From positions 1 to 55,597 of the forward strand of contig JAQBRD010000003.1 of the NCBI GenBank assembly GCA_028286665.1: 55,597 bases of DNA, given 5' to 3'. The notes below the pieces were generated by a model. The model was not told the DNA's origin. It did no database searches and worked only from the letters and a program-made list of their open reading frames with translations. The DNA comes from Candidatus Tayloriibacteriota bacterium. Lineage in GTDB: Bacteria; Patescibacteriota; Minisyncoccia; Phycocordibacterales; PALSA-1337. Positions 3,117 to 52,982 of this stretch are shown here, in pieces (position 1 is the stretch's first letter; each line of letters opens with the position of its first letter). A program made the translations under genes and the position numbers.

Positions 3117-3195
3117 TATATGACATTGTATATGACTCGCAGCTTTTTACCATGCAAAACTTCCTTTCAGAATAGCAGCTTACTACATTCTAAGC

Positions 3196-3220
3196 AAAAA
3201 ACGCCCTTCGGCGTTTTTTT
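3196..3220. terminator. Bidirectional intrinsic terminator
   Basis: AAAAAACGCC-CTTC-GGCGTTTTTT. Confidence 0.75.
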
Positions 3221-3238
3221 GCTCTCTAAATTTGCTAA

Positions 3239-4336: not shown

Positions 4337-4499
4337 ATTTAGCATCAAAGCTTTTATTATTAATCCGTACTTATACAATACAATGATAAACATGTTTGTG
4401 CCACATAAATAGCACTTATGTCAATACTCGTCAAATAATCGCTTAACATAGGCACTTTCTTGGTTTTGATTTGACTATTTTATAGTCATATTATAAGAT

Positions 4500-5327: not shown

Positions 5328-5334
5328 TTGGTAC

Positions 5335-7011
5335 CTACCGATTGAGTGTCTTGAGATAATCAAGAATCGCAGGATCTTTTGATCCCAGCTCGACAGCTTT
5401 CCGATAATAGAAGATCATCTGTTCTCTGTCCCGCAACAGTCGATAGACGGCACCGAGATTTTGATACTGCCGGTAGGTATAAGGGTCCAGTTGGATTGCT
5501 TTTTCCAGAGCGGCCTGAGCTTCTGCGTACCGCCCTGCGTCCATGTAATAAGCGCCGAGGTTATTGTATGCATTGGCATAATTCGGATTTATTTCTATGG
5601 CTTTTTTGTAGTTGACGGCAGATTCATCATTCCTGCCGGTATTAGAAAGCACGATGCCGAGATTATTGTAAGCGTTGGACAATCGCGGCTCAAGCGCAAT
5701 GGATTTTCTCAGATAGGTTTCGGCTTGCTTGTAGTCTTCGCGATCCATGTACATCAATCCCAGATCATTATACGACCGAGCATCGACATCAGGCATCTTC
5801 AAAAGTTCCGCTTCTAAAGCCTTGGACTTGGCATACTGTCCGATTTCATTATAAAGATCGATCACGCGGCTTATGTGACGAGCGTTGCGCTCGAGTTCCA
5901 TGGAGATCTGAGCCTCGGTCATCGCGGCTTTCCGATCATCATATTTCTGATCATACAGAATAGACAGATTCAAATGACCTGGAGCATATCGGAAATCGAA
6001 CGACAGGGCTTTTTTATACAGATCGAATTCGGCCTTCGTGTCATTTCTTCGGCTGGCTATCAAAGCCAGAGCATTGTAAAAACTCGCATAACGGGGTTCT
6101 ATTTTGAGACCCGCATTCAGAATTTCTTCGGACTTATCGAGCTGATTTTTGTCCAAATAATATGAAGCCAGGGTCAAATATTGATTGAGGTCTTCAGGAA
6201 AATCCTTTATTGAAAGATCGAGGTAGCGGAAGAATGCATCGTCATTTCCGAGCGCAAGCTCTGCAGAAGCGATGTCGCTATACAGAAGAGGGCTTTTGAC
6301 GGTCGGGTCATTTTCAATGCTCTTGTATATTGAGAGCGCCTGATCATATTGTTTCATTCCATGATACGTAAGTCCCAGATGGTATTTGAGGATCGCCGAA
6401 TTAGGATCTTTTGATAACGCGGATTCAAGCAATTCGAGCGATCCCTGATAATCGCCTTTTTTAAGACGAGAATCGAGAGCTTTTTTTACTGTCTGAACCA
6501 GATCATCAGGCATTCCGACATACAGATTATATGTCTGCAAGGAACGATAGGTGAATGCGTCATCAAGCGAGCCGGTACCGAGGAATTCATTCGTAGATGT
6601 CGAGCGTGATGAGAATTTCTTATAGCTATCGATATTCTTGCGATACGGAGTCAGCAGGCTTTCGTCGCTCGTATCAAAGGCTTTTTTATAGACGTCATAG
6701 ACATATTCCCCGTCGCCGACACCGGCCCCATTCGAATCGAACTTTGTCGGATCAGTCTTATATATCTCTTTTTCTGCGATATCGGTCAGCCCATCTTTAT
6801 CCTTATCCGGATCTTGGAGCACATGCAGATAGATAGCATGCCCGATCGTATCGACTTTTTGATCTATATATTTCTTCACCAATCGTCCTGGAATCGAAGC
6901 GACGCTTGGATTATGAACAAGGTATGCAATAGAAACCGCCACTGCCAGCAACAGGGCAGCAAGGATTGATAGGAGTACGATGGCCCAAGTTGGAAATAGA
7001 GGCTTATTCAC
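5335..7011 (-). CDS. Membrane-anchored TPR-repeat protein with a TSP3-like Ca-binding motif
   Basis: N-terminal TM; DPDKDKDGLTDIAE...TDPTKFDSNG motif; multiple AYNNLG TPR units. Confidence 0.85.
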   Translation of the reverse strand: MNKPLFPTWAIVLLSILAALLLAVAVSIAYLVHNPSVASIPGRLVKKYIDQKVDTIGHAIYLHVLQDPDKDKDGLTDIAEKEIYKTDPTKFDSNGAGVGDGEYVYDVYKKAFDTSDESLLTPYRKNIDSYKKFSSRSTSTNEFLGTGSLDDAFTYRSLQTYNLYVGMPDDLVQTVKKALDSRLKKGDYQGSLELLESALSKDPNSAILKYHLGLTYHGMKQYDQALSIYKSIENDPTVKSPLLYSDIASAELALGNDDAFFRYLDLSIKDFPEDLNQYLTLASYYLDKNQLDKSEEILNAGLKIEPRYASFYNALALIASRRNDTKAEFDLYKKALSFDFRYAPGHLNLSILYDQKYDDRKAAMTEAQISMELERNARHISRVIDLYNEIGQYAKSKALEAELLKMPDVDARSYNDLGLMYMDREDYKQAETYLRKSIALEPRLSNAYNNLGIVLSNTGRNDESAVNYKKAIEINPNYANAYNNLGAYYMDAGRYAEAQAALEKAIQLDPYTYRQYQNLGAVYRLLRDREQMIFYYRKAVELGSKDPAILDYLKTLNR

Positions 7012-7044
7012 TACTCATTTATATTAGCACAAAGTGACACGCCC

Positions 7045-7845
7045 TCACTTTTTCCACACAACATATAACCCAGGATAATATACCCCGTATGGACCTTTGG
7101 TCGGTTTCGATAGATCTACCGTTGAATATATTTCAAATGCGCCTGTCGCATAGGCATAATGCAGAACGCCCAAGCAATCATACGCGATAGGATTAGACAC
7201 GCACACTCCCGCAACCTTTCCGAGAAACAGCAATGCAGTCATGGTCGTTTCATCGGAAATATCCTTCCGATTGTGCACTGATAGCCCCCGAGACTTGAGC
7301 TTCTCTTCAACGTCGAACGGCAGCTTCTCTGGCTTAACATGAGCTAGATACGCGATCATATTCATCGGTTCGATGCCTGGCTTTATTTTTACCTCAGGCA
7401 GATCGCCGATATCTTCCGCTCGATCCTTTAGGATCCGTTTAGTCCAGCCGAGCAAGGGGTAACGATAATATGAATACAGCAGATTTTTTTTATTGTGCAT
7501 GCTGACAATCACCGAGAAATACCCTTCTCCAGCGACATACATCGCCGTGCCGTCGATCGGATCGATCAAGAGCACTAATCCATTTGTCCCTTTGAATTTG
7601 GAGACGGACGGGGTTGATTCTTCAGCGATCAGTTCGCATTCGATGAGCGGCGTTTCAGCTAGCTTTGAAAGAATAAACTCCTGAACCTGCAAATCAGCAT
7701 CGGTTACAATGTCTATGCCTTCAGCGCCCGTCTCTGATTTATTATAGGATGAAACTTTATTTCTCAGACTGCACGCAAGATCGGCAGCCTGATCAAAAAT
7801 CGGTTCGAATGAAACTAAAAGAGTAAGATATTGATCTTCAGTCAT
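7045..7845 (-). CDS. Inositol monophosphatase family protein
   Basis: IVTDAD, AEE and IDPIDGT motifs. Confidence 0.85.
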   Translation of the reverse strand: MTEDQYLTLLVSFEPIFDQAADLACSLRNKVSSYNKSETGAEGIDIVTDADLQVQEFILSKLAETPLIECELIAEESTPSVSKFKGTNGLVLLIDPIDGTAMYVAGEGYFSVIVSMHNKKNLLYSYYRYPLLGWTKRILKDRAEDIGDLPEVKIKPGIEPMNMIAYLAHVKPEKLPFDVEEKLKSRGLSVHNRKDISDETTMTALLFLGKVAGVCVSNPIAYDCLGVLHYAYATGAFEIYSTVDLSKPTKGPYGVYYPGLYVVWKK

Positions 7846-7891
7846 GATTGAGAGAGTTATCTGGGCTCGTTGCAGAGAAATAATACCATAC

Positions 7892-8446
7892 TTATCGAGG
7901 TGTGTGGGTCACCTGCTCTAAAAACGTCTTGAGCGCGGCAAACGGCTTTACCTGCATATATGTCTTCTGATCGTCCTCTTCGCTGAGCTGCGCTCGCGTA
8001 ACGGTATATCCGTCAGGTATGAAAATCTTGTCCCACCCATAGCCACTCTCTCCGGCTGGCACCTCAGCGATAGTTCCGCCGAGACTTCCTTCAAAAAGTT
8101 TAAGCATCTCACCGTCATAATATCCAAATAAGCATTTGGCGGTCGCTCGGCGGCTTTTTCCATTCACCATCGAGCAGATGGTTTCGAAAGGAACTTGGTC
8201 AACGAAGAAGCGTATAAAGGGCCTAGGAAGACCACCGAGGGCCTCGAATTCGAGAGACACGTCCTCAACAATGACCGGTTTCTTTATTTTTTCGTATGCT
8301 TGCCGGACTTTGTGTTCGACAATTTCCTTCAGATCAAGAGACTGTATCTCTTCCAAATCGAGCTTTATATGATCGACTGCATAACCCAGGTATTTTGCCA
8401 GGTAGTCTGCTTTCTTCTGATTTCCGGTTATGAACGTTATTTGCAT
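7892..8446 (-). CDS. Ham1/ITPase-family non-canonical purine NTP pyrophosphatase
   Basis: ITGNQKK, LEEIQ, VEDVSL and YGWDKIF motifs. Confidence 0.9.
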   Translation of the reverse strand: MQITFITGNQKKADYLAKYLGYAVDHIKLDLEEIQSLDLKEIVEHKVRQAYEKIKKPVIVEDVSLEFEALGGLPRPFIRFFVDQVPFETICSMVNGKSRRATAKCLFGYYDGEMLKLFEGSLGGTIAEVPAGESGYGWDKIFIPDGYTVTRAQLSEEDDQKTYMQVKPFAALKTFLEQVTHTPR

Positions 8447-8509
8447 ACTTCAATTCTAGCTTAGATATCAGCCTTTAGGTACTCGAGTCGTGCCGACACA
8501 AGTTCTTAA

Positions 8510-8535
8510 TGCGGGTGTCTCGGGCTAGAACCTTT
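8510..8535. repeat. Degenerate direct repeat copy A (tRNA-3'-end-like / att-like)
   Basis: TGCGGGTGTCTCGGGCTAGAACCTTT; shares the 19-nt GTCTCGGGCTAGAACCTTT exactly with the copy at 9925-9951. Confidence 0.7.
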
Positions 8536-8612
8536 TAGCTCATTGCACTTAAGGCTTTGGGCAATTTTTATGAACCACAAGGACGCATGTCGAGCAGACC
8601 GAAAAGCGGGGT

Positions 8613-9791
8613 TTACATATTAATAAGTTCGCTTTTCCACAAGCCGCCTACTTTAATAAATGACAAACGCACCATTCTGCCTTTTTCTTCGGCAGATATA
8701 TCTATCAACACAACATGTGTGGGTTCATGGGTTGCGTAGTCAAAAAATGGCATCCAAGCAATGTTCTGGCCTGAAATAGTGTTTTCATTGATAGTTTCTA
8801 AAGTAGCTGAGTACCTTGATATTATGCTTGTCACATAACTCTCTGGTGATGATTCCATATCAATTTTTCTCATTTTATCTGCTCTAGAAGAGACAAGATA
8901 TTCCCTCATTTTAGCAGTATTATTCATGCCAACGATTTTATGAAGCTCCTCGACAGCTGATCTGATCTCCTCTTTTTGAGCATCATTAAGCGTTAACTGG
9001 GGTTTATTTTCTGTTACAGCCCTTCTCTGGTCATTTATAGATTCTTTAGTGCTTTCGATTATATAGTTCTTGTAAATTACCGAAAGAATTATGAGACTAA
9101 TAAAAGACAGGAAAACAAACAGCTTGCTCCTTCTCTTGGTGTCTACAACTACCGTAGAGGCGATAATGTCATGGAGAGTTTGTTTCCTCTCCGTAAAAAG
9201 TGGAAACAGGTATCCGATATTGAGAATAGCAACACTTATAATCGAAGCAGCGGCTCTGCTTATTGCTCGGAGAATACTAATTCTCTCTCCATTCTTATCT
9301 ACAACTCGCAGTCCTAATATTATTTTTCCGGGCGTTGCCTGGAGTTTCGATGCATTGAACAAAGTATAATACATCAAGTAAAAAATTAACCCCACCGTCA
9401 GGCCAACAACCATAGCCGTACCCCATATCTTGAATAGATTGAAGAAAATACTTTCTACGGATCCCTGAGTAGTTAGGTTAATTACGATGTTATTCATCCA
9501 AGGAAAAACCATCGGCGAAATAACGAGACTCGAGAATAAGTTCGACAAGACTACCACAAGAGACACGTCGATAAGATGAGCAACGAGGCGGCGTAGAAAA
9601 GTTGCGTACAACTGATTACTAGCCATTGCTGTATTTTGCGTGTTTGCTGCGGCAGAATTCATAGATTGGAAAGCCTCTTGAATGTCTTCAATCAGCCACC
9701 CTTGGGAACTCAATTCTCTTGTTATTTCGTCTCGAGATACGCCCCTTGAAATTTCACTTCTAACAAAGTTCAAAATTTCTGGTGTTATCAT
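8613..9791 (-). CDS. RDD-family membrane protein with N- and C-terminal extra domains
   Basis: YATFLRRLVAHLID, QATPGKIILGLRVV and RKQTLHDIIASTVVV motifs; AT-rich. Confidence 0.9.
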   Translation of the reverse strand: MITPEILNFVRSEISRGVSRDEITRELSSQGWLIEDIQEAFQSMNSAAANTQNTAMASNQLYATFLRRLVAHLIDVSLVVVLSNLFSSLVISPMVFPWMNNIVINLTTQGSVESIFFNLFKIWGTAMVVGLTVGLIFYLMYYTLFNASKLQATPGKIILGLRVVDKNGERISILRAISRAAASIISVAILNIGYLFPLFTERKQTLHDIIASTVVVDTKRRSKLFVFLSFISLIILSVIYKNYIIESTKESINDQRRAVTENKPQLTLNDAQKEEIRSAVEELHKIVGMNNTAKMREYLVSSRADKMRKIDMESSPESYVTSIISRYSATLETINENTISGQNIAWMPFFDYATHEPTHVVLIDISAEEKGRMVRLSFIKVGGLWKSELINM

Positions 9792-9884
9792 AAATTAAAT
9801 TAGATTAAGAATAATATAGATGTAAACCAAGGTTGATATGTGAGATAAATATATCATATGTTTCGAATTTCTTGACTGTCAGGC

Positions 9885-9924
9885 AAAATAAAAGCAACAC
9901 CCAGAAGAGTGCTTTTTATTTTTT
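9885..9924. terminator. Terminator-like inverted repeat adjacent to repeat copy B
   Basis: AAAATAAAAGCA...TGCTTTTTATTTT. Confidence 0.55.
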
Positions 9925-9951
9925 TGCGGGGCGTCTCGGGCTAGAACCTTT
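9925..9951. repeat. Degenerate direct repeat copy B (tRNA-3'-end-like / att-like)
   Basis: TGCGGGGCGTCTCGGGCTAGAACCTTT. Confidence 0.7.
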
Positions 9952-10118
9952 CTCGGCTAAGCCCTGCAAGGTTGTTTCAAAGAAATTTAGTATACCATTT
10001 TGACGCGACTCGAGCGCATTAGAAAGTTATGAAGGTGACACAGATTAATACATTTAGTTATATATTGACATTATAATATTATATCAGCTTCAGAACTGCT
10101 CGCCATAACTTTTATCTA

Positions 10119-11591
10119 CTAGTACCTGAGATAGTCACCGACCTGATCCATCCTCCGCAGCATAGCCATCCGTCGGTCAAATAATACATCAGCAAGTCGA
10201 TACGCTTGTTTGGCCGCTTGAAGCGCCTCTTGGGTTTCCATGGTCTTTAGTTGTCGACCCACATCTTGAGTACTTTCTCCAACCATCATGAGGGCATTAG
10301 CAATAGATTTGAGGCTGTCCACATCTTCTTTAACGTTTCTTGAACGCATTGTACCAATAGTTTCAACGCTATCCTGTAGGCGAGCAAATGACGCTGACAT
10401 CTCATCAAAATCTTGCGGCTCTTTTATGTCCATTTCACCGAGTTTTTTCATTGTCGAAGACATGCGGCCAATTTCATTGACATCAATGAGTTCCGCCAAA
10501 CGCTCATCATCTCTATTTCGGAGAACTCTGTCGAGCGATCCGAAATAATCAGACATCTGCTCTACAGTCTTTTTATACCCGCCCACTGATTCCGGTGACA
10601 CAAAAAAAGTTTCTGATTCCCTAGATGCTTCATTTTCAAGTGAAGGAGTATTTATACCGAGCGATTCTCTGACTTTTCTCAATGCTTCCGCATCTTGTTC
10701 TATCACCTTCGGTATTTCAAATTTACTTGGCTCAACCGGACCAGCCTCTTCCGTCTTTTGTTCCACTCGCTTTTCGGCTACCCCCGCCTTTTCGGGATTT
10801 TTCGGAAAATGTGTCTCTCCCGCATTTCTAAAATCAGAATGGAGCTTATCAACTTGACCATAATAGCTCAAAACTTCCTGCTCCGAACCATCAGCTTTTC
10901 TCACGGTGTATGGCGTAAAGGATGTATCAGTAAATCCGCGACCGGCCATGACCTGACTTCGCAACGCATCTCGCTTTCCGAAACGGCCACCGAGCGACTT
11001 CAATTCTTCTGTGCGTTCCGGATCCATATCCTTGAAGAAAGCATCTCGTCTTTTTCCAAGATCGAGCTCCAGATTATCCTTATCTGAACGCAACCAGACC
11101 TCATCTTCTTGACCGACTCCACGCTCTCTCATTCCCTTCTCAACTTCTTTATGGCGTGCGGTTATATCACGTAATCTATTGAGATCGCTTTCGTACTTTC
11201 GGATAAAATCAGACTCTTCCGCTGGCAATGACCGCACTTCTTGCTCGCTCTTCAAAACACCCGCCAATTCAGAATCGGGTGATATTTTCTCCGTCATCAA
11301 CTCCAACTTTTCGTCAGCATCTCCGTGACTAAATATAATGTATTCGGGATTGATAGTACCAGCTTCCACTTCCTTCAACTCTTCATTATATGAAGCTATT
11401 TTTTCCTGCTCTGCTTCCTGTTGCTGAACATCAATTTTCGAAATTAGGACAAAATCGTCAGATAGGTGAGTTTCTTCCGTGCGTTTTTTTGCAGATGCAA
11501 TATCTTCCTTTATCTTATCGCTCGCCTTCATCCTCAGAACTTCTATTGGCGTAATCTCCTGTGTTGGTATGGGTTGTTCTAGCTTTTCCAT
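10119..11591 (-). CDS. Hypothetical acidic coiled-coil protein
   Basis: Long open frame rich in E/K/D; start placed at MEKLEQ after a TGn-TATTAT -10 element. Confidence 0.75.
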   Translation of the reverse strand: MEKLEQPIPTQEITPIEVLRMKASDKIKEDIASAKKRTEETHLSDDFVLISKIDVQQQEAEQEKIASYNEELKEVEAGTINPEYIIFSHGDADEKLELMTEKISPDSELAGVLKSEQEVRSLPAEESDFIRKYESDLNRLRDITARHKEVEKGMRERGVGQEDEVWLRSDKDNLELDLGKRRDAFFKDMDPERTEELKSLGGRFGKRDALRSQVMAGRGFTDTSFTPYTVRKADGSEQEVLSYYGQVDKLHSDFRNAGETHFPKNPEKAGVAEKRVEQKTEEAGPVEPSKFEIPKVIEQDAEALRKVRESLGINTPSLENEASRESETFFVSPESVGGYKKTVEQMSDYFGSLDRVLRNRDDERLAELIDVNEIGRMSSTMKKLGEMDIKEPQDFDEMSASFARLQDSVETIGTMRSRNVKEDVDSLKSIANALMMVGESTQDVGRQLKTMETQEALQAAKQAYRLADVLFDRRMAMLRRMDQVGDYLRY

Positions 11592-11610
11592 TGTGTGGTA
11601 GAATAATAAC

Positions 11611-11991
11611 ATGCAATTTACTGATGTCAAAACAGCTGATGAATACATGAATTTGGTCAATAAATATTCTTGGCTCGTCGACTCAGAGCTCAAAAAAGTT
11701 GAGCTTAATATCAAGGAGCATCCAGCTCATTTGGATATGAATATCGAATCTCTACCTAAGCTGATCTCGCTCGTGAATGTGATAGGATATCTGAGAGGAC
11801 AAAATAACGCATTCATCGAAATACGACCCCATGACGTAATTGAATATCAACCTGAGTTGTATAAAAATGAAGATGCATTCGAGTCTCGGCTACACGCTAT
11901 AATCACGACCATATGTGTAGATCCTAAAAATCTTGCGCTGTGCAAATCTACCCTCGAGCGGCACTTCATCGAGTATCGACTAAAGAAATAA
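11611..11991 (+). CDS. Hypothetical protein
   Basis: 126-aa ORF preceded by TGG-TAGAAT extended -10 (leaderless). Confidence 0.65.
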   Translation: MQFTDVKTADEYMNLVNKYSWLVDSELKKVELNIKEHPAHLDMNIESLPKLISLVNVIGYLRGQNNAFIEIRPHDVIEYQPELYKNEDAFESRLHAIITTICVDPKNLALCKSTLERHFIEYRLKK

Positions 11992-12022
11992 GATCAAAAA
12001 TTATTAATATAAATTAAAAAAT

Positions 12023-12529
12023 ATGAACGAGCAAGAAAAAGAGATCAAAAATCAAAATGGATTCGATGGCGTGCATGAGCTTCCTGGATCGGCTACTTTA
12101 TTTCAGGCTCGAAAGGGTGAAAAATACGGAATCTACTCATCTTCTAGAAAAGCGCTTGTCGTCCCTGTCGAGTTTGATGCGGTAAATCTTCAAGTCGATA
12201 AAGACAGGGTTTCAGTTGAGAAGGCAGGTAAGCACGGCATGTATTCTATCTCGCACGAGAAAATTGTCGTGCCGATTGAATGGGATTTTGTGAGTACCTC
12301 ACCAAATCCTACTAACACTGACACCTACGAAGTAGTAAATGGGAAGAAGCATGGTGTGTATTCACGTTTGGAATCGAAGCTCATCATGCCTATCGAATAT
12401 GACACCATCATAGAATTGGTCGGTTCAGACCACTTCAAGGATTCTCCTTACAATGGACAATACCGCGTACAGCTTGAAGAAAAAATTGGTAGGTTTGATC
12501 CAAAGACGCAGTCTGTAACTTGGAATTAA
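12023..12529 (+). CDS. WG-repeat-like beta-repeat protein
   Basis: Three K(Y/H)G(I/M/V)YS....K.(V/I).P.E(F/W/Y)D repeats. Confidence 0.7.
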   Translation: MNEQEKEIKNQNGFDGVHELPGSATLFQARKGEKYGIYSSSRKALVVPVEFDAVNLQVDKDRVSVEKAGKHGMYSISHEKIVVPIEWDFVSTSPNPTNTDTYEVVNGKKHGVYSRLESKLIMPIEYDTIIELVGSDHFKDSPYNGQYRVQLEEKIGRFDPKTQSVTWN

Positions 12530-12815
12530 TCTGAATCGTCAGATTCTTTCTCTATAACTTATCAATGACCGAGGACGGCTTTTTTCACCATCACGAATTT
12601 TCAACTGCCATTTCATAATATGCCATATGATCCGAGATTAGTCGGGTTAAGTGACAAATAGCTATATGTAGCTAGGCGTCTCGTGCGCGATAACCTAGCT
12701 CTAATTGGCGGAGTGAGATTCGGTCACAGGTATTTTTCTACTGAAAAATCCCGCGACCCCGCCTCGCTCGCCTACGCGAGCTCCGGCTTTCTCATCTACG
12801 CTCTGCTTCACGCAG

Positions 12816-12856
12816 AAATGAAAAAAAGAACTGCAGAAGCAGTTCTTTTTTCATTT
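12816..12856 (-). terminator. Terminator downstream of tRNA-Ser
   Basis: AAATGAAAAAAAGAACTGC-AGAA-GCAGTTCTTTTTTCATTT. Confidence 0.75.
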
Positions 12857-12858
12857 TG

Positions 12859-12945
12859 CGGAGAGAGCGGGATTCGAACCCGCGATGCCCTTTCGGACAT
12901 TCTACGGTTCCGGGGTAGCCCATTCGACCGCTCTGGCATCTCTCC
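12859..12945 (-). tRNA. tRNA-Ser (GGA), long variable arm, atypical anticodon loop
   Basis: GGAGAGA/TCTCTCC acceptor stem, G73, GGTTCGAATCCC T arm, long variable arm; anticodon arm CTACC-CCGGAAC-CGTAG. Confidence 0.85.
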
Positions 12946-13011
12946 ATCGACCACGATAGTAACACATAACAACCTCATAGGAAAACTAAAAAATATATTT
13001 TTTGTTTTTCC

Positions 13012-29641: not shown

Positions 29642-31228
29642 ATGAACAAAAAACCACAGGTAGCTCTTATCGTGCTCGACGGCTGGGGCCATCGCGAAGA
29701 CACGACGCACAATGCTGTCGCGGCGGCGAAGACGCCGTATTTCGATTCGATCTGGAAGCAGTATCCGCATTCACTCCTCGAAGCATCCGGCCTCGCCGTC
29801 GGACTCCCTGAAGGCCAGATGGGCAATAGCGAGATCGGCCACACCACCATCGGCGCCGGCAAGGTGATCGATACCGACCTCGTGCGCATCGCGAAAGCCA
29901 TCAAGGATGGCGAATTCAAGACCAACCCGGCTTTCGTGAAGCTTTTCAATCATGTGAAGAAATATGATTCGACGCTCCATGTGAAAGGCTTGCTCAGCAC
30001 CGGCGGCGTCCATAGCCACGAAGAGCATCTGTTCGCATTCCTCAAAGCCGTGAAGGAAATCGGCATCAAGAAAGTCGTCATCCACGCATTCACTGACGGC
30101 CGAGATACGCCGCCGCAAAGCGCAGCTGATTCTCTTGAGAAGCTCGAGCACCTCATCGCGGAACTCGGCATCGGAAAGATCGCTACCGCCTCAGGCCGCT
30201 TCTATGCAATGGACCGCGACAACAATTGGGATCGCCTCGCAAAAGCAGAGGCAGCGATGTTCGAATGCAAGGCCAATGCCTGCACGCCGAAGAAGCCATC
30301 TGAATTCCTCCGCGAACTCTACAAAAATGGAACAAAGGATGAGACGCTCGACCCGATCGTCTTTCTCGATGAGAACGGCAAAGGATACAAAGTCGAGCAG
30401 AATGACGGCGTCTTCTTCTTCAATTTCCGCAAGGACCGAACGCGCATGCTCTCGAAGAAGCTCGCCGATATGGCGAAGGCGAAGAATCTCGCATACGTGA
30501 CCCTCACAGAATATGATCCCGAGATCATCGCCGACGTTGCCTTCCCCACCATCGCAATCGAGACGACGCTTGCGAAAGAAGTCGCCGAAGCGAACCTCAC
30601 CCAGGCGCACATTGCTGAAACCGAGAAATTTCCGCACGCGACGTATTTCCTCAATGGAGGAACTGACAAGCCGCACAAAGGAGAGAAGCATATCATGCTC
30701 GACAGCCACAAAGTTCCAGACGCGAAGCGCGCGCCGCATGTGAAGAAGGACGCCGACGGGACTTTCGCATTCACCCATGACATGGCCCCGATGATGCGCG
30801 CAGAAGCGATCGCAGACAAGGCGATCGAGGAGGTCAATGCTGGCACCGATCTCATTTTCATCAATTTCGCAAATCCAGACATGGTCGGGCACACGGCGAA
30901 TGTTCCCGCGATCATCGAGGCCGTCGAGGAAACCGATGCGCAGCTCAAGCGCGTCTGCGATGCGATGCTCGCGCGAGCGAAGGCTAGCGGCGCTGAAGAA
31001 TTCATCTTCGTGACTGCAGACCACGGCAATGCCGAAGTGAATATTGATCCGATGACCGGCGAGAGACATACATCTCACACGATCAGCCCGGTTCCAGCCA
31101 TTCTCATACAGTCGAATGTGATGCACGCGAAGCTTGCGCATGGAGGCCTCGCCGACATCACCCCGACGATTCTGAAAATCCTCGGCGTACCGCAGCCGAA
31201 ATCGATGACAGGCAAATCGCTTATCTAA
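29642..31228 (+). CDS. gpmI: 2,3-bisphosphoglycerate-independent phosphoglycerate mutase
   Basis: LDGWG, GQMGNSEIGH, DGRDTPP, GRFYAMDRD, NPDMVGH and TADHGNAE motifs. Confidence 0.97.
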   Translation: MNKKPQVALIVLDGWGHREDTTHNAVAAAKTPYFDSIWKQYPHSLLEASGLAVGLPEGQMGNSEIGHTTIGAGKVIDTDLVRIAKAIKDGEFKTNPAFVKLFNHVKKYDSTLHVKGLLSTGGVHSHEEHLFAFLKAVKEIGIKKVVIHAFTDGRDTPPQSAADSLEKLEHLIAELGIGKIATASGRFYAMDRDNNWDRLAKAEAAMFECKANACTPKKPSEFLRELYKNGTKDETLDPIVFLDENGKGYKVEQNDGVFFFNFRKDRTRMLSKKLADMAKAKNLAYVTLTEYDPEIIADVAFPTIAIETTLAKEVAEANLTQAHIAETEKFPHATYFLNGGTDKPHKGEKHIMLDSHKVPDAKRAPHVKKDADGTFAFTHDMAPMMRAEAIADKAIEEVNAGTDLIFINFANPDMVGHTANVPAIIEAVEETDAQLKRVCDAMLARAKASGAEEFIFVTADHGNAEVNIDPMTGERHTSHTISPVPAILIQSNVMHAKLAHGGLADITPTILKILGVPQPKSMTGKSLI

Positions 31229-32511
31229 TCTCCCTTTTCTTCAAGCCTCTTTTCAAGCCTCAGGATCGCCGCCATATATTTCACGAACAGCACCATGAGC
31301 GTCGTCCACAAGACGCCGATCGCATAGCCTGCGACGACATCGGAAAGCCAATGCACATTGAGGTAGAGGCGGCTCAGCGGTACGAGAAAGCTGATGATGA
31401 CCGCGGCAGCGATCGCTGCTTCCCTCGCGTGATGGTTCTTGATATGGATGAAGCAGACATAAATGAGCGCCACGCAGCCGAAGGCAGCCATTCCCGCATG
31501 AAGGCTCGGGAAGCTGAAGTCGCTGTAGAGCGTAGCGCCGCCCTCAGGCCGCACGCGCATGACGAGCTCCTTGATGAAGCCGATCCAGCCCATCGTGCCG
31601 CCGAGCGACAGGATGAGGAATGCGAAGTCTTTGTAGTTTCGTTTCAAAAAATAAATGCCTGTCGCGATAATGCCGAGCAAGGCGAACGTCACCGGACTCA
31701 GCGCATTCGTGATGAATGACATGATTCCTGTCATGAGCGAGCCTGCAGGAGCAGCATGAGCCGACATCCACACGTTCACTGCGAGATCGAGCTGCTCCAT
31801 GAACGAGTGGGCGCTGACCGTATCCTGGATCATCTTGAAGCTCACGTACAGCGAGACGAGCATGAGTCCGAGTGTGAAAAGATCGTACTTGACGAAGACA
31901 TGCCATCGCTTATTGATGAAGCTATATGCCCAGATCATGATGAGCGCGATGATGAAGCCTGCGAGGACGAACTTGCCCATGACTCCTGCAGCAGCATGGT
32001 ATCCGGCGCCGAAGACATACCCGATGAGCACCGAGCTCACTGCCCAGCTCACGCCGGCGATGATATCGTACAGCCAGAACTTTCCGGCGTGTCCGCCGCT
32101 TGCGCCGACGATGAATGGCATGAGCGTTCTCGTGAGCGGATTGAATCGTCCGAAAATGATTGCCTTGCCGGTATGCTTCGCGACGAGCTGCTTCGCTTTT
32201 TCAATATGGCTCTCACGGATCGAAAGGTACCTGCTTACGCGTTCGAGAAAACCGAATCCGTATTTCCTGCCGAGGCAGAACGCTATCCCATCGCCGAGTA
32301 TGGCGCCGAATCCTCCGAGCATGAGTACTGCAGGCAGGCTCAGCACTCCGATTTTGGCCATGAATCCCGCGAGGATGATGATGGTATGCCCAGGAACGAC
32401 CGAACCGATGAGCGGCAAGCCTTCGAGGATGGACGTAATAAAAATGACCGCATATCCGCCATGAGCGACGATGCTTTCGAGATGATGGATGAACGGCGCG
32501 AAGAGATGCAT
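31225..32511 (-). CDS. Bifunctional DedA/VTT + PAP2 membrane protein
   Basis: DedA: LEG...PG, GD...F.LGR, FGRF.P..R; PAP2: K....RVRP, SFPSLH, SRLYLNVHWLSDV. Confidence 0.93.
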   Translation of the reverse strand: MHLFAPFIHHLESIVAHGGYAVIFITSILEGLPLIGSVVPGHTIIILAGFMAKIGVLSLPAVLMLGGFGAILGDGIAFCLGRKYGFGFLERVSRYLSIRESHIEKAKQLVAKHTGKAIIFGRFNPLTRTLMPFIVGASGGHAGKFWLYDIIAGVSWAVSSVLIGYVFGAGYHAAAGVMGKFVLAGFIIALIMIWAYSFINKRWHVFVKYDLFTLGLMLVSLYVSFKMIQDTVSAHSFMEQLDLAVNVWMSAHAAPAGSLMTGIMSFITNALSPVTFALLGIIATGIYFLKRNYKDFAFLILSLGGTMGWIGFIKELVMRVRPEGGATLYSDFSFPSLHAGMAAFGCVALIYVCFIHIKNHHAREAAIAAAVIISFLVPLSRLYLNVHWLSDVVAGYAIGVLWTTLMVLFVKYMAAILRLEKRLEEKGD

Positions 32512-32556
32512 GGAGGTAGTATAGCAAATATTCAAGCTCGTCGAATGAATGCATAT

Positions 32557-32590
32557 AAAAAGGAGAGGCTCTGTCTTGGAAGACAGAGCC
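32557..32590 (-). terminator. Intrinsic terminator of the candidate large ncRNA
   Basis: Minus strand GGCTCTGTCT-TCCA-AGACAGAGCC-TCTCC-TTTTT. Confidence 0.75.
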
Positions 32591-33144
32591 CTTTGTGACT
32601 GATTACTCGATTTGTGCTATTTCGGTTCCTGTGAAGTTACATACCCTCACAGGAACCTAGAGAAGAAGAACTGCATCATGGTTTACCTTCAGGATTTTTT
32701 CCAGTAATTTCTTCTCGAAATTACTGATAAATCCGGAAAGCTAGTTTGTTTTTAATCTATCAATGCGGTATTGCTGGTTACTCGGCCCATTTGGCCTTAA
32801 CCCCTTTTTCTTCTTTTCATAGTGCAAACAATCTATGATCAGAAGGATGAGCTACTCTTATCCTCGCGATGTCTAGCCTAGTTTAACTAGTGCTAGTTAC
32901 ATCTGCCTTCATGGTGTATCGACGTTGATTCATCGGTCAATCGATACCTTTGTGACTATTTCACTGCTGAAGGTGATTTGTTAGTCGCTGAGCCTGCCAC
33001 TCCTTGGCTTGGCTATCTTTCCCTATTAGTGCGTTTGGCTTCATAAGCCGTTGAGTTCCGCTAACCTGAGGAACCTGCACTCTGTGATTATATCTTCCGA
33101 AGCCGATTGGCTTCTACGTAACGTCTTGTCGTTTACTCTGTTAC
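32557..33144 (-). ncRNA. Candidate large (~590 nt) highly structured non-coding RNA, family unrecognised
   Basis: No minus-strand ORF of 60 aa or more; own promoter and terminator; at least 10 stem-loops plus long-range pairings. Confidence 0.65.
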
Positions 33145-33150
33145 ATGTGT

Positions 33151-33178
33151 ATCATAGCATATACATGCAATTTGTCAA
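33151..33178 (-). promoter_or_regulatory. sigma70 promoter for the candidate ncRNA
   Basis: TTGACA (33178-33173)-16 nt ending TGC-TATGAT (33156-33151). Confidence 0.7.
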
Positions 33179-33280
33179 GTACATTTACCATATGCAAAAT
33201 AAAATCTTTATGAATTTCTTATCTGAAACTGCAGCAGAAAAGTTCGACGAGTTGCGGCATGAGACGGTATACTGCTCTAC

Positions 33281-33952
33281 ATGAAATTACTGATCATCGA
33301 GGATGATATCGCCGCCGCCGCATTCATGAAAACAAGCTTCGAGTCCGCTTCGCATGTCGTCGATCTCGCGCACAATGGCACCGACGGATCCTATGCCGCG
33401 CGAATCAATCCATATGACGTGATCATCCTCGACTTCTCGATGCCGAAGAAAAACGGACTGAAAGTCTGCGAAGAGATCCGTTCCGCCGGCAAGACCGTGC
33501 CGATACTCTTCCTTTCAGTCATCGGCGATACTGCGAAGAAAGTCGATGCGCTCGAGAAGGGCGCCGACGATTATATGACCAAGCCATTCTCATTCGACGA
33601 GCTGCATGCCCGAGTGCGAGCGCTCGCGCGCAGGCCGCATAAGATCGAGACATCCATACTTACCGCCGGAGATCTGAGCCTCAATACCGAGCGTCAGGTA
33701 GCAGTCCGCGGAGGCACCGCAATATATCTGACAAGAAAGGAATATACCCTGCTCGAGTATCTGATGCGGAATCAGGGCACGATATTATCGCGTGGTATGA
33801 TCATGGAGCATGTCTGGAACGCGGACAGCGATCCTTTTTCAAATACCATCGAAGCGCACATCCTCAATCTTCGGAAGAAGGTGAATATCGGACGGAGAAA
33901 GGATTTCATCCGGAATGTTCCAGGACGAGGATACATGATCGCTGTCGAATAG
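33281..33952 (+). CDS. OmpR/PhoB-family response regulator
   Basis: LLIIEDD, IILDFSMP, GADDYMTKPF, LTRKEYTLLEYL and IRNVPGRGY motifs; TATACT -10 just upstream (leaderless). Confidence 0.96.
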   Translation: MKLLIIEDDIAAAAFMKTSFESASHVVDLAHNGTDGSYAARINPYDVIILDFSMPKKNGLKVCEEIRSAGKTVPILFLSVIGDTAKKVDALEKGADDYMTKPFSFDELHARVRALARRPHKIETSILTAGDLSLNTERQVAVRGGTAIYLTRKEYTLLEYLMRNQGTILSRGMIMEHVWNADSDPFSNTIEAHILNLRKKVNIGRRKDFIRNVPGRGYMIAVE

Positions 33953-35623: not shown

Positions 35624-37510
35624 ATGCACACCAAACAACTCGACCATATGATCGAGCAGCTTTCGACGCACCTCGACTCCATGCATTCCAAAGACAAGCT
35701 GCTGCAAAGCAGAAACATATTCATCCCTGCGCTTATTCTGCTTGCGCTTCATTCAGGAAAAGAACATAGGCGAATCCAGAATATCTGCGACACGCTCATC
35801 GCTCATATTCTTGAAAATAAAAATGATGCCTGGACATGGAATTACTGGCCGAGATCGACAGGAAAGAAAACCTCAGCATCAGAACGGCCATCCTACCCCG
35901 ACGACATGGATGACACGAGCTGCGCGATCGCAGCTATCGCGCTCTGGCGGCCTGAAATGCTCTCAGGAGAAGCATTTGCGAATATAACGAAAGCTCTCAT
36001 CGCCTGCGAAACGCAGCCTGGCGGCCCTTATTTCACCTGGATAGGCGGCATGAGAGCCTCGCAGACTCCTGACATAGGCGTGAATGCGAACATCTCTTTC
36101 ATGCTTTCCCTCATAGGAGTATCGATGCCCGAACTCACAGAGTCAATCGATCATGAATTGCGCTTGGAGCAGCCCGCATCACAATTCTATTCGAACAGAA
36201 TGATGATCTTGTATTTCATTTCGCGCAATTATTCGGGAAAGGAGAAATCCCGGCTGATAGAAAAAATATGCACTGAAGGCAAGTCCAATCTCATGGATGC
36301 AGCTCTCGCAGCGAGCTCGCTCATCCGGCTTGATGCTCCTGATGGAATCATTTCTGAACACATCGCCAAGCTCGGCTCGTTCACGGTGTCGATCGGAAAA
36401 AGTGAGGCTCACCCGATGTATATCGAAAAGATCGCAAACGGAATCATCCAATATGCGACATCTGAAGCCTTCACCGCTGCAGCTGCCTTGGAGGCGTTGC
36501 TTCTCTGCAGATTGCGCCTCCAGGAGAAAACTGAGAAAGGACGCCGCGACATCGAAGCGGCAGCCGAGAATCAGATCCAATTGGCAATCATCGAAAAACT
36601 GCATTCTGAGACAAAGAGCCTCTCTTCCGAAATGAAAGCAGCATTCGACGCGCATCTTGAAAAATTCAGATCAGCAAGCCACTGGAACGAGATCGCGCTC
36701 CTGCCCTATTCGCTCGTTCGCAATTTTCCAGATGCAGATGCTGTCGCGGCAGTTGTCGGAGCTGTCGGCGTCCTTGGCTGGATCGCATACACCATCGACG
36801 ACATGAGCATGGATGAACCGATGTCCGGTCATGGGAAAGAAATTCCTCTCTCGCGTTTCATCCATAGGAAGATCGAGCATCTGATCAGGGCGGAATTGCT
36901 GCCAGCGGCAGCAGAAGGCACTCGATCAAGAATAGAAAGATACATCGGCAAAGTCTTCATCGATCTCGACAATGCGCATCATGCCGAAATCCTCGGCAAA
37001 AAAGTATCAATGACCGAAAAGTCATTCGGGCACGCGCTCCCGGTCATGCTCATCGCGCATGTATTCTCAAAAAATATCCGAAACGGGGATGCCGAGCAGA
37101 GCGTCTGCGAAAATCTGCTGAAGATGCTGGAGATGAGCTGCTCGCACTACATACTCGCCCGGCAGCTGTCAGACGACGCGCACGATTGGCAGGAAGACAT
37201 GAATTCAGGCCGGCTTACCGACGTAACTGAAATGATGCAGAGAGCCGCGAACGCTCCTATGACTGCATTCGCGCCGGAAAATGCAGAGAAGAGCATGCGT
37301 GACATATTCTGGAATGAATGCGCTCTTCGGATAGCTGACAGGATCCTCGAGCACGCCATGAATGCGAAACAGCTCGCCGAGAAATGCAGTATTCTCGACG
37401 AGCGTTTCGATATGAGTTTCCTGATCCGATGCATCTCGCGATATGAGGCTATCGGGAGATCGATGACTGAAGATATTCGGAAGACGAAGGAATTCCTTGC
37501 TGCGTACTGA
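35624..37510 (+). CDS. Fused class II terpene-cyclase-like + class I isoprenoid synthase/prenyltransferase-like protein
   Basis: N-terminal WTWNYW, YPDDMDDT (DxDD) and D..VNAN; C-terminal YTIDDMSMD, EKS and QLSDDAHDWQED...GRLT. Confidence 0.65.
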   Translation: MHTKQLDHMIEQLSTHLDSMHSKDKLLQSRNIFIPALILLALHSGKEHRRIQNICDTLIAHILENKNDAWTWNYWPRSTGKKTSASERPSYPDDMDDTSCAIAAIALWRPEMLSGEAFANITKALIACETQPGGPYFTWIGGMRASQTPDIGVNANISFMLSLIGVSMPELTESIDHELRLEQPASQFYSNRMMILYFISRNYSGKEKSRLIEKICTEGKSNLMDAALAASSLIRLDAPDGIISEHIAKLGSFTVSIGKSEAHPMYIEKIANGIIQYATSEAFTAAAALEALLLCRLRLQEKTEKGRRDIEAAAENQIQLAIIEKLHSETKSLSSEMKAAFDAHLEKFRSASHWNEIALLPYSLVRNFPDADAVAAVVGAVGVLGWIAYTIDDMSMDEPMSGHGKEIPLSRFIHRKIEHLIRAELLPAAAEGTRSRIERYIGKVFIDLDNAHHAEILGKKVSMTEKSFGHALPVMLIAHVFSKNIRNGDAEQSVCENLLKMLEMSCSHYILARQLSDDAHDWQEDMNSGRLTDVTEMMQRAANAPMTAFAPENAEKSMRDIFWNECALRIADRILEHAMNAKQLAEKCSILDERFDMSFLIRCISRYEAIGRSMTEDIRKTKEFLAAY

Positions 37511-50533: not shown

Positions 50534-50606
50534 AGCCAAAGTCCGGGATCGAACCGGAGACCCTCGCTTTACGAAAGCGATGCTCTACCAACTGAGCTAC
50601 TTTGGC
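50534..50606 (-). tRNA. tRNA-Thr (CGT)
   Basis: Cloverleaf; anticodon arm TCGCT-TTCGTAA-AGCGA. Confidence 0.95.
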
Positions 50607-50621
50607 ATATTTGCGCTGAAC

Positions 50622-51179
50622 CTACTTTGCAAGATACTCGGACAATTTCTCATCGATCTGCGCCCGGAACTCCCCCATCGTTCCGTCGTTCATGAGGAGG
50701 ACGTCCGCAGCTTTGATGCAGTCGGAGAGGCTCATCCGGGCCGGATCATCCGACTTCATCTCGACCTCCTGCTGTGCGGCGAATTTCTCGAATGTGACAT
50801 TGTCAGTCGCGCTCTTGCGGAGCACTGCTCTTTTATACCTGATTTTGAGGTCGGCGTCCACTGCCACGAGCAGGAAGTTCTCCTGCTGCTTCAGGAAGCC
50901 GACTTCGCCCATCGTCCGGACCGATTCGATGACGGCATTCTTGCCGGATTTCTCTGCCCGCCGATACAATGATTCGATGATGTGGCTTGCTCCGAATCGA
51001 GTGCGGAGATCGTCGGCAACCGCCTTCATGCTCGGACGCTCGACAGGCAAGCCGCGCTTCTCGATCTCCTCGACGAGGAAATCCCGGACGGAATAGAAAC
51101 CGAAGCCCTTCGTCGTGAGATGGCTCGTGAGCTCCCCTTTTCCCGACCCGTTTGTTCCCGTGACGCCGATGATGATCAT
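50622..51179 (-). CDS. P-loop nucleotide kinase (dephospho-CoA kinase/UPF0200-like)
   Basis: GVTGTNGSGKG Walker A; VIESVR and IRYKRAVLR segments. Confidence 0.8.
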   Translation of the reverse strand: MIIIGVTGTNGSGKGELTSHLTTKGFGFYSVRDFLVEEIEKRGLPVERPSMKAVADDLRTRFGASHIIESLYRRAEKSGKNAVIESVRTMGEVGFLKQQENFLLVAVDADLKIRYKRAVLRKSATDNVTFEKFAAQQEVEMKSDDPARMSLSDCIKAADVLLMNDGTMGEFRAQIDEKLSEYLAK

Positions 51180-51201
51180 TAATCTTTATTATACCTTAGG
51201 G

Positions 51202-51274
51202 AGCCGACGTCCGGGATTGAACCGGAGACCTCGTCATTACCAATGACGTGCTCTACCAACTGAGCTACATCGGC
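51202..51274 (-). tRNA. tRNA-Thr (GGT)
   Basis: Cloverleaf; anticodon arm CGTCA-TTGGTAA-TGACG. Confidence 0.95.
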
Positions 51275-51351
51275 TTACTACTCGCACAAACTACCATGTC
51301 AGCCATGTCGGCTTACAGAGACATACTAATACACTTGGCCTTTCTTTTCAA

Positions 51352-52635
51352 TTACTTCGCCTTGATCGGCAGATACGCTGTGACCGTCGTCCCCTTTCCG
51401 AGGACGGATGAAACGGAGATCGTGCCGCCATGAAGCTCGATGATCTTCTTGGTCGTATAGAGGCCGACGCCGCTCTCATTCGGCTCGAGCGAGATGGCGT
51501 TCTTCCCTCGATGAAGCCGATCGAAGACATATGGAACATCCTCTTCCGAAATTCCGATGCCAGTATCGGTAACCGACATCACCATCTTCTCCCCATCGGA
51601 CGTTACGGAAATATCGACATTGCCCTTCGGCGAATACTTGAATGCATTATCGACGATGTTGAGGAATGCGGCCTTGAGCTTCTTGAAATCGCCTTCGATC
51701 TCGAGCTTTTCCGGAAGATTCAGATTGACTTTCACTGAACGGACGAGCGCGACATATTCGAGATCGCCGAGGATCGCCTTGATGAGGCGAGGCACGTCGA
51801 CAGGCACGCGGACGAGCTTGAGCTGATCGGTGCTTGAGCCTTCGGCGGTGGTGAGCATCTCATTGACGATGCCGATCGCATCGCCAACGCGAAGGATGCT
51901 TTCATCGATGAGTTCGCGATTCTGCGGAGATACGCCCACGTCTTCTTTGAGTGTCTCCAGGGCCCATCGGAGGCCTGCAAGCGGCGTGCGGAGCTGGTGC
52001 TGGGCAACGCTCAGGAAATCATGCTTGAGCTGCTCGATCTGCGTGAATTCGCTCAGGCGGCGGTCGATCTCTTCTTTCTCATTTTTCTGATGAAGCGTAT
52101 CGACGACGATGCGATGCATGAGATAGCAGATCAGGCCGAAGAGTACCGTGACCGTGACATGGCGGATGATGAGCGACGGGTCCGTCCAAGCTCGCGGATA
52201 CAGCACGATGAGCATCGCGAGCATGATCGTGAGCACGAGGCCTACATGCTCGGTGATGCGTTCGTCGAGGTAGACCGCGGAGACGATGACCGGAAAGACG
52301 AGCAGGAATATGAACGGGCTTCCCAGCCCCCCGGCCGAGATGATGATGCACATGAAGAAGAACGAGTACGAATAGCGGGCAGCGGTGAAGAATATCTTCT
52401 TATTGAATTTTTCATGAAGCGCGAAGAAAAGCACGTGCAGCACGGCAAGCGAGACGATGGAAAACAGGACTGCCTGCGGATACCGCATCCAGGTGAAGAA
52501 ATCAGGCGCAAGATACATGCCCAGCCCGAGTGCGATCGGTATGAGAAGGCCCAACCCTTCTACAAGATAATAATACTTCCGGAGCCGAAACTCTTGGAAT
52601 ACCGCCTTGCCTGAAGTGCGAGTATGATCCGTCAT
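51352..52635 (-). CDS. Orphan membrane sensor histidine kinase
   Basis: About 6 TMs; QHQLRTPL, NIVDNAFKY, DTGIGI and SGVGL boxes. Confidence 0.93.
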   Translation of the reverse strand: MTDHTRTSGKAVFQEFRLRKYYYLVEGLGLLIPIALGLGMYLAPDFFTWMRYPQAVLFSIVSLAVLHVLFFALHEKFNKKIFFTAARYSYSFFFMCIIISAGGLGSPFIFLLVFPVIVSAVYLDERITEHVGLVLTIMLAMLIVLYPRAWTDPSLIIRHVTVTVLFGLICYLMHRIVVDTLHQKNEKEEIDRRLSEFTQIEQLKHDFLSVAQHQLRTPLAGLRWALETLKEDVGVSPQNRELIDESILRVGDAIGIVNEMLTTAEGSSTDQLKLVRVPVDVPRLIKAILGDLEYVALVRSVKVNLNLPEKLEIEGDFKKLKAAFLNIVDNAFKYSPKGNVDISVTSDGEKMVMSVTDTGIGISEEDVPYVFDRLHRGKNAISLEPNESGVGLYTTKKIIELHGGTISVSSVLGKGTTVTAYLPIKAK

Positions 52636-52636
52636 G

Positions 52637-52710
52637 CGCAGCCAAGCGGGCTCGAACCGCCAACCTCTCGCGTGACAGGCGAGTGCTCTAACCAGTTGAG
52701 CTATGGCTGC
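52637..52710 (-). tRNA. tRNA-Asp (GTC)
   Basis: Cloverleaf; CTCGC-CTGTCAC-GCGAG anticodon arm; G73. Confidence 0.95.
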
Positions 52711-52761
52711 AATGCTGCTTATTATACATAAATATGCAGACCTCGCAATCGCTTTGAAGTG

Positions 52762-52834
52762 TGTCGGGGGTGGGGATTGAACCCACGACCCCGGGCTTAT
52801 GAGTCCCGTGCTCTACCAACTGAGCTACCCCGAC
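52762..52834 (-). tRNA. tRNA with CAT anticodon (elongator Met or Ile2)
   Basis: Cloverleaf; loop CTCATAA; paired 1:72 position, so not the initiator. Confidence 0.88.
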
Positions 52835-52909
52835 ATGGAACGCCTATTTTTTCAAGCCCTCAAAATATAACAAAAAGTGGCGAAAAACGCCACCCTTTGT
52901 AATATCTTG

Positions 52910-52982
52910 TTGCGGAGGCTGGAGTCGAACCAGCGAGACCTAGGTTATGAGCCTAGTGGGCTAACCGCTACCCTACCCCGCG
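52910..52982 (-). tRNA. Initiator tRNA-fMet (CAT)
   Basis: 5' CGCGGGG with C1:A72 mismatch; anticodon arm CTAGG-CTCATAA-CCTAG. Confidence 0.88.

Follow-up and report, generated by a model that had tools for sequence, protein, structure and literature searches.

A large structured RNA of a Candidatus Tayloriibacteriota bacterium, very probably the founding member of a rare family with no entry in Rfam 15

Large structured bacterial RNAs of unassigned function are few, and OLE, GOLLD, ROOL, HEARO and raiA each brought unexpected biology. OLE, a highly structured orphan non-coding RNA of ~600 nt, is encoded in a conserved operon that also holds the genes of its partner proteins. ROOL and GOLLD are stand-alone units of ~0.5-0.8 kb with many helices and pseudoknots, a variable periphery, a sporadic distribution and no obligatory protein neighbour, and they assemble as RNA-only particles. 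Here we analyse a 55,597-nt stretch of DNA (contig JAQBRD010000003.1, positions 1 to 55,597; hereafter the window) from a Candidatus Tayloriibacteriota bacterium (assembly GCA_028286665.1, G000; 0.93 Mb in 34 contigs, 94% complete), in which a first-pass annotation had noticed an unrecognised, large structured non-coding RNA. That claim is supported by negative Rfam searches, by five homologues and by the folding of the RNA (z = -8.4), and we are confident that the window RNA is a genuine structured RNA of an uncatalogued family, of which it is very probably the founding member, with five relatives. It shares with ROOL and GOLLD the traits listed above, but its family has no covariance-model match, resides in Saccharibacteria-type hosts and lacks a prophage or tRNA context. 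With OLE it shares size and an ornate orphan structure, but there is again no model match, and the family has no conserved neighbours. The earlier likening to the OLE/ROOL/GOLLD class is fair for size and complexity, but the searches revealed no homology with any of these RNAs.

The RNA unit lies on the minus strand (33178..32556), and its transcript, whose start is probably near 33145 as predicted from the promoter, would run from 33145 to 32557 (589 nt). The promoter and the terminator claimed for its two ends are both present (Table 1), and within 32300-33500 this terminator is the sole terminator-like site found. The same TTGACA / TGnTATnnT layout precedes all five homologues, each of which ends in a GC-rich hairpin followed by a U-run. 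The minimum free energy (MFE) of the window RNA is -187.1 kcal/mol versus -136.5 ± 6.0 in 100 dinucleotide shuffles (z = -8.42), so that it is more stable than shuffled controls. The complementary strand is equally stable (z = -8.43), and therefore folding energy gives no strand information; the minus strand was assigned from the promoter and terminator signals and from the G-U pairs. Indeed, G-U pairs are common in the counted helices, consistent with the strand that bears the promoter and terminator. The local helices named in the first-pass annotation can each be found in the sequence and in the MFE fold, P7 (32702-32711/32717-32726, lengthened by GGAUUU/AAAUCC) among them, and the direct repeat of 11 nt is exact, CCTTTGTGACT occurring at 32590 and again at 32947.

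Five homologues of 444-503 nt were found, in genomes G055, G431, G432, G444 and G434, giving six units of 444-589 nt overall. With the window RNA as query, BLAST against 61 relatives matched two genomes, G000 itself and G055, which belongs to a different family of the same order (30 nt, 93% identity, E 5.4e-6); by eye, the 469-nt unit of G055 carries the promoter layout, the 5' hairpin, the motif of helix P2, the conserved block C and the terminator. An exact scan for the P2 motif across 185,579 species genomes gave six loci, of which three are real (G055, G431 and G432, the latter two with records titled Candidatus Saccharibacteria), and the number of the others agrees with chance (~4 expected in the collection). 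When up to three mismatches are allowed, two genomes among 401 of the window's order contain the motif. BLAST with the G431 RNA matched 5 of the 31 genomes of that genome's family and added G444 and G434. A covariance model of the core, R1, spans 134 positions and gives the five homologues 112-139 bits; it matches four of these 31 genomes and, across the window's order, one of 151 genomes (118 families), namely G055, whereas R2, a model of the 3' domain, matches G000 only among the 41 genomes of the window's own family. There is one copy of the RNA per carrier genome, and the carriers are Saccharibacteria-type genomes of 0.5-0.9 Mb that resemble the candidate phyla radiation (CPR).

Several candidates were set aside in these searches. 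The three chance P2-motif loci lie in two Serinicoccus genomes and one gammaproteobacterial metagenome-assembled genome and are not family members. A 19-nt BLAST match in G439 (partial, 17.6 bits) was not recovered by the R1 genome search and was dropped. The P5-loop motif at up to two mismatches matched 13 of 401 genomes of G431's order versus 10 reversed-control hits; its 11 inexact loci score at most 12 bits with R1 and were rejected, the exact loci in G431 and G434 alone being real. In metagenome contigs the P2 motif gave three loci, all chance; in IMG/VR viral contigs it gave none and the P5-loop motif gave two, both chance by R1; phage-genome and plasmid collections gave no match. As a separate observation, the exact hairpin motif GTTCCTCAGGTGAGCGGAAC occurs in the two Serinicoccus (Actinobacteria) genomes at apparently the same intergenic site (L006:5128-5147; L010, minus strand, ~6487-6506). 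Actinobacteria are the known hosts of cultured Saccharibacteria, hence our mention of this coincidence.

The helices of the conserved fold were worked out manually on the six sequences. The coordinates of the G444 copy were then projected onto an unedited MAFFT alignment of the homologues, and the fold was compared with controls in which the 3' partners were slid by 1-3 columns and with 500 shuffles. Across the five homologues, its 85 pairs in 15 helices, including four pseudoknots (PK0 to PK3), are 83.5% paired, compared with 37-44% when slid, and 27 pairs have changed on both sides, compared with 3-9 in the slid controls; none of the 500 shuffles does as well in pairing, compensatory counts or covariation score. 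The helices are thus kept through two-sided changes, in support of the first-pass proposal. Support is strongest for PK0, P5, P9 and P6/P7. Such changes affect 6 of 9 pairs in P5, 4 of 6 in P9 and 4 of 12 in P6/P7. PK0, a 7-bp pairing of the S3 loop with the strand just before CAUGCCU, is 100% paired with two-sided changes in 4 of 7 pairs. Furthermore, when the window copy is included, the 27 pairs of the 3' domain are 88.6% paired (33-47% slid) with 13 two-sided changes (0-3 slid). Here PK2 is 93% paired, and 5 of its 9 pairs are altered on both sides, GAGAAGAA/UUCUUCUC in the window corresponding to GAGAGAU/AUCUCUC in the others. PK2 is the long-range AGAAGAA/UUCUUCU pairing of the first-pass annotation, which is therefore retained in the homologues. 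Two further proposed long-range interactions, GGAAAG..UAG with CUA..CUUUCC and a pseudoknot of ACCUUCAG with CUGAAGGU, receive no support from the homologues, in which the equivalents of these strands pair locally, as S2 and the P6 extension. S3 is 63% paired on the MAFFT alignment, where it is shifted by one column, and perfect in 6/6 on per-sequence coordinates. A G-U-rich local hairpin that RNAalifold placed at S1-S3 was traced to MAFFT misalignment and replaced by S3 from the per-sequence coordinates.

Membership of the window copy in this family appears well supported. Its 5' part matches clearly, through the BLAST match to G055 and the exact P2 motif, and P2 with the loop UCAGGYYAGC occurs in five of the six members, the window included (it is absent from G434). 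All six have their own TTGACA/extended -10 promoter and intrinsic terminator, a length of ~440-590 nt and no conserved open reading frame (ORF). In the 3' domain of the window copy, the P6/P7 loop pairs downstream as PK2 and P9 follows. R3, a model built without the window copy, returns the window locus as its top match in the 0.93-Mb genome, at full length and in the expected place, but scores only 17.7 bits there, with an E-value of 0.2 for the genome and 0.016 for 71.6 kb. In the centre, where R1 gives no match, block C, S2, S3, GCGAGGAU and P5 can be recognised by hand in this order, with 7 of 9 aligned P5 positions pairing; S1 and PK0 could not be placed by hand in the window copy. Between these core elements the window copy carries hairpins of its own, including an extra one within P2 at 33037-33049, and it is the largest, most divergent and most decorated member. 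Peripheral elements vary in the other members as well: the 5' hairpin corresponds to GGAAGC/GCUUCC in G055 and GGGC/GCCC in G431, G444 and G434 and is missing from G432, and P2 of G444 has both sides altered (GGUUCU/AGAACC and GCGC/GCGC). PK1 is UGAUUG/CAAUCA in the homologues versus GUUUG/CAAAC in the window, a hand-located correspondence that is weak evidence alone.

Two complementarities of the window RNA stand apart from this fold. Positions 32650-32667 and 32709-32726 form an 18-nt inverted repeat (78% complementary). Through it, the 5' strand and loop of P7 would pair with the 3' strand of PK2 and the beginning of P9, a possible alternative conformer rivalling the P7 and P9 hairpins. The P9 loop at 32636-32645 (UAUGUAAC) could form 8 bp, one of them G-U, with GUUACGUA of the 5' leader (33115-33122), a match spotted by eye that could be due to chance; the homologues differ in that their P9 loop has its partner downstream (PK3).

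Table 1. Features of the RNA unit, its surroundings and the loci of its homologues
Feature	Position	Strand	Description
Promoter	33151..33178	minus	-35 TTGACA, 16-nt spacer, extended -10 TGcTATGAT; 11/12 hexamer positions plus TG
5' hairpin	33099..33114	minus	GAAGCC-AAUC-GGCUUC; peripheral element, in MFE fold
P2	33029..33080	minus	outer GUGC/GCAC, inner GGUUCC/GGAACU, 10-nt loop UCAGGUUAGC
Block C	32974..32987	minus	CGACUAACAAAUCA; homologue version GUCUGRCAAAUCG
S2 and S3, stacked	32906..32973	minus	S2/S3 at the same place in 5/5 homologues, sequences differ
S2	32968-32973 with 32906-32911	minus	CCUUCA/UGAAGG
S3	32941-32947 with 32916-32922	minus	GUAUCGA/UCGAUAC; GAUUGAC..GAU in loop
CTAG-rich hairpin	32869-32903	minus	window-specific; MFE fold
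GCGAGGAU block	32861-32868	minus	GCGAGGAU/CGAGGAU conserved in 6/6 members
Local hairpin	within 32843..32903	minus	GAGGAU/AUCCUU; MFE fold
P5 hairpin	32817..32838	minus	UCAUAG/CUAUGA, loop AUUGUUUGCA; 9 bp in homologues
PK1 3' strand	32744..32748	minus	CAAAC with GUUUG of the P5 loop (32825-32829)
P6 around P7	32686..32740	minus	P6 GGAUUU/AAAUCC with extension CUUUC/GAAGG; P7 CAGUAAUUUC/GAAAUUACUG
PK2 3' strand	32660..32667	minus	UUCUUCUC with GAGAAGAA at 32709-32716 (P7 loop and start of P7 3' strand)
P9 hairpin	32624..32657	minus	GGUUCCUGUGAG / UUCACAGGAACC, loop GGUAUGUAAC; stem 32624-32635/32646-32657
Intrinsic terminator	32556..32591	minus	11-bp stem 32591..32566, then CTCCTTTTTA / CUCCUUUUUA
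Extra DNA versus G001	32537..33194	minus	~650 nt; flanks common to both 'aaattcataaagattttat' and '..aatat(t)tgctatact'; side-by-side reading
OmpR-type response regulator	33281-33952	plus	followed by histidine kinase
DedA/VTT-PAP2 membrane protein	31225-32535	minus	likely ATG 32511
Upstream terminator-like hairpins, G431 family	L008:3430-3460		
	L009:6900-6925	minus	
	L019:1610-1640	minus	
	L018:1385-1420		
Neighbours, window (G000)			response regulator; DedA/PAP2
Neighbours, G055			ResIII helicase; downstream gene 440 nt away
Neighbours, G431 and G432			UvrD/PD-(D/E)XK nuclease; convergent MFS transporter
Neighbours, G444			S6 and SSB; HicB-HicA
Neighbours, G434			PilC; pilin

We propose that the stand-alone gene, from its own promoter, gives a discrete ~590-nt structured RNA in which a family core of stacked helices (P2, S1-S3, P5, P6/P7 and P9) is surrounded by variable peripheral hairpins, and in which the loop-to-distant-strand pairings PK0, PK1, PK2 and PK3 would bind the core helices together. 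The RNA would be abundantly made and would work in trans by its three-dimensional fold, as a scaffold for a partner encoded elsewhere, as a ribozyme or as a self-assembling RNA, and presumably not as a cis-regulator, an antisense small RNA or an mRNA. The conserved unpaired blocks GUCUGRCAAAUCG, CGAGGAU, CAUGCCU and AGUUUGG at the helix junctions may form its working surface. Since the RNA travels as a lone gene, its action is probably carried out by the RNA itself or together with a widely available partner. A trans-acting, fold-dependent mode of action is slightly favoured, and we put the probability of the whole account, a stand-alone ~590-nt structured RNA gene of a rare family acting in trans through its fold, at roughly 0.6.

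A number of points weigh against this account. The family has six members, two of which are 91% identical; the structure was tested on the sequences used to derive it, which favours it over the slid controls, and shuffle controls inflate significance for related sequences. PK1 (the P5 loop with CAAUCA), 93% paired, is invariant in the five homologues, and PK3 is just 59% paired on the MAFFT alignment. The homologues fold no better than their shuffles (z of -1.66 in G055 and of -1.39 in G444), and the 3' domain of G055 is arranged otherwise, R2 failing to detect this copy. Furthermore, R1 gives no match to the window copy and R3 retrieves it at just the genome-wide E given above, and thus the homology of the central part of the window copy rests on hand alignment and colinearity. 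As for expression, a soil metagenome, probably the source, was the one DNA dataset that matched and no RNA dataset did; two small metatranscriptomes of the source study gave 0 contigs, an uninformative result.

The genomic setting bears on whether the RNA could instead belong to a non-autonomous mobile or selfish element, or a remnant of one (an ORF-less retroelement or an intron-like element, for example), whose structure serves its own propagation. The window RNA gene sits between two divergent genes. In the same-genus genome G001, the same gene pair lies 110 nt apart and the RNA gene is absent; the ~650 nt of extra DNA in the window consist of exactly the promoter, the RNA and the terminator. 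In G002 and G004, the DedA gene and the kinase lie within ~0.8 kb, again without the RNA. Because three other genera of the family lack the RNA at this site, a gain in the window lineage is the more parsimonious reading, and this lineage would have gained the RNA as a stand-alone accessory gene. Such a clean insertion would suit a mobile element, as would the patchy spread (one carrier among the 41 genomes of the window's own family, one among 151 of the order and four among 31 of the other family) and the differing context at each locus, even inside one family. However, no transposase, reverse transcriptase or integrase adjoins any copy, each genome has a single copy, no terminal repeats of at least 10 nt, inverted ones included, were found at the ends of the window unit, and there is no match to group I or group II intron models; the RNA was found neither in IMG/VR contigs (two motifs) nor in the phage and plasmid collections, and a promoter of its own precedes every copy, something for which an intron has no need. 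We consider a mobile element unlikely. A 7-nt TGCATAT/ATATGCA pair at the inserted unit was noticed by eye only.

Neighbours differ among the loci (Table 1). An idea that the RNA marks defence islands was rejected, PADLOC giving nothing beyond generic resemblance to helicases for 2 of the 11 proteins encoded nearby, and the different neighbours together with this result indicate that there is no common partner gene, cis-regulatory logic or defence-island signature. The HicB-HicA toxin-antitoxin pair lies directly downstream of the G444 RNA (L018:1859-2466). Members from the G431 family have, ~45 nt upstream of the -35 box of the RNA, a hairpin resembling a terminator (AAUGGCUC...GCC and a U-run), although their upstream genes differ, and such an upstream insulator may be part of the transferred unit. 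G431 and G432 share a 5.6-kb syntenic block that is 90.6% identical, with the RNA at 91%, a comparison that is uninformative about selection. In the window itself, the histidine kinase is directly followed by a 628-aa ORF (35624-37510, plus strand) that neither Pfam nor PADLOC matches, and positions 3000-13000 have a GC content of 0.39-0.47 versus 0.50-0.58 over most of the remaining window; this low-GC stretch may be an island or a block of differently composed genes.

A self-assembling RNA-only particle of the ROOL/GOLLD type, in which some of the loop-to-strand pairings (PK1, PK3) would be intermolecular, is in our view also improbable, and a shade more so than a mobile element. It would account for the size, the separate transcription unit, the loop-strand complementarities, the variable peripheral helices and the sporadic distribution, but the RNA matches none of the ROOL, GOLLD and OLE models, and its loci have no prophage or tRNA neighbourhood.

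It is very unlikely that the RNA instead belongs, as a highly diverged version, to an already known family (RNase P, tmRNA, 6S, group II intron, HEARO, OLE, GOLLD, ROOL or raiA). At the gathering score, Rfam 15 finds six tRNAs in the 55.6-kb window and nothing else (five of these genes within 2.5 kb at 50534-52982, the sixth, of 87 nt, alone at 12859-12945 on the minus strand). In 32450-33350 there is no match with E < 1, and none with E ≤ 1 inside any of the five homologue RNAs, the one such match at the homologue loci, RAGATH-25 (E 0.73), lying outside the RNA. GOLLD, ROOL, OLE, HEARO and raiA are not among the matches up to E = 10 for 32450-33350 or E = 1 for the homologue loci, and group I and group II introns give no Rfam match at the same limits (E ≤ 10 and E ≤ 1); by reading only, no domain-5-like hairpin with a conserved AGC was seen in the window RNA. 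Size and pseudoknots do recall tmRNA, RNase P and the ornate RNAs. Like tmRNA, the window RNA has a strong independent promoter, a length of a few hundred nt and serial loop-strand pseudoknots, but the genome's tmRNA (RF00023) is elsewhere (C17:11347-11777, 87.9 bits), ARAGORN finds 0 genes in 32300-33500 and neither a tRNA-like domain nor a tag frame, and the family is far too patchy for ssrA. Like type A RNase P RNA, it combines a conserved pseudoknotted core with lineage-specific peripheral helices, but the genome's copy is at C13:24314-24690 (101 bits), and RF00010/RF00011 match neither the window at the gathering score nor 32450-33350 at E ≤ 10. The first-pass exclusion of RNase P, tmRNA and introns is thus in agreement with both the covariance models and ARAGORN. 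The 6S model (RF00013) has no match in the whole genome, which leaves a 6S-like role unfilled by a weak test, the model detecting 6S in just 5 of 14 control genomes; the conserved fold of the family is multi-domain and pseudoknotted, and 6S is a long irregular hairpin with a central bubble. Furthermore, absence from all 40 other genomes of the same family implies that the RNA is not an essential housekeeping RNA. Since all the known-family memberships tested have failed, we provisionally label the RNA a new category relative to known families, orphan ornate RNAs in general being known. At the level of abstracts, we found no description of a large structured RNA from Saccharibacteria or CPR bacteria.

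A long cis-acting leader, such as a riboswitch or attenuator, of the downstream DedA/PAP2 gene would be in keeping with the common strand and with a terminator that ends ~45 nt ahead of the likely ATG. Yet the -10 box of that gene in G001, TGCTATACT, is still present between the window terminator and the gene, G001, G002 and G004 carry the gene pair without the RNA, and downstream of the homologues lie a convergent MFS gene (G431 and G432), HicB (G444), pilin (G434) or a gene 440 nt off (G055), all of which makes such a leader hard to credit.

The longest ORF inside the window RNA has 39 aa (GTG start, 33080..32961, beginning VQVPQVSG), in line with the earlier claim that there is no substantial one. 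The same start recurs in G431 and G432, because the conserved P2 motif reads in that frame; the three ORFs (39, 20 and 20 aa) have unrelated tails, those of G431 and G432 differ despite the 91% identity of the RNAs, no ORF is conserved across the six copies, and no other ORF is shared. Recurrence of this start is what would speak for an mRNA encoding one or more small proteins, the least probable of these alternatives, which we hold very unlikely given that the peptide merely reads the P2 motif in frame and that the ORF is absent from G055, G444 and G434.

Returning to a stand-alone structured RNA, the family provides a defined construct of 444-589 nt and a testable secondary-structure model for probing, cryo-electron microscopy and activity screens. 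A bolder possibility, which we regard as tentative and at present doubtful, is that these RNAs represent a new multi-pseudoknot class, ribozyme or self-assembling, that passes between ultra-small epibiotic Saccharibacteria as a naked gene, just promoter to terminator, and supplies an RNA-only accessory function. The RNA gene is usable as a marker of gene flow among Saccharibacteria, and a strongly promoted non-coding stretch of ~600 nt is unlikely to be retained uselessly in genomes that are so extremely reduced.

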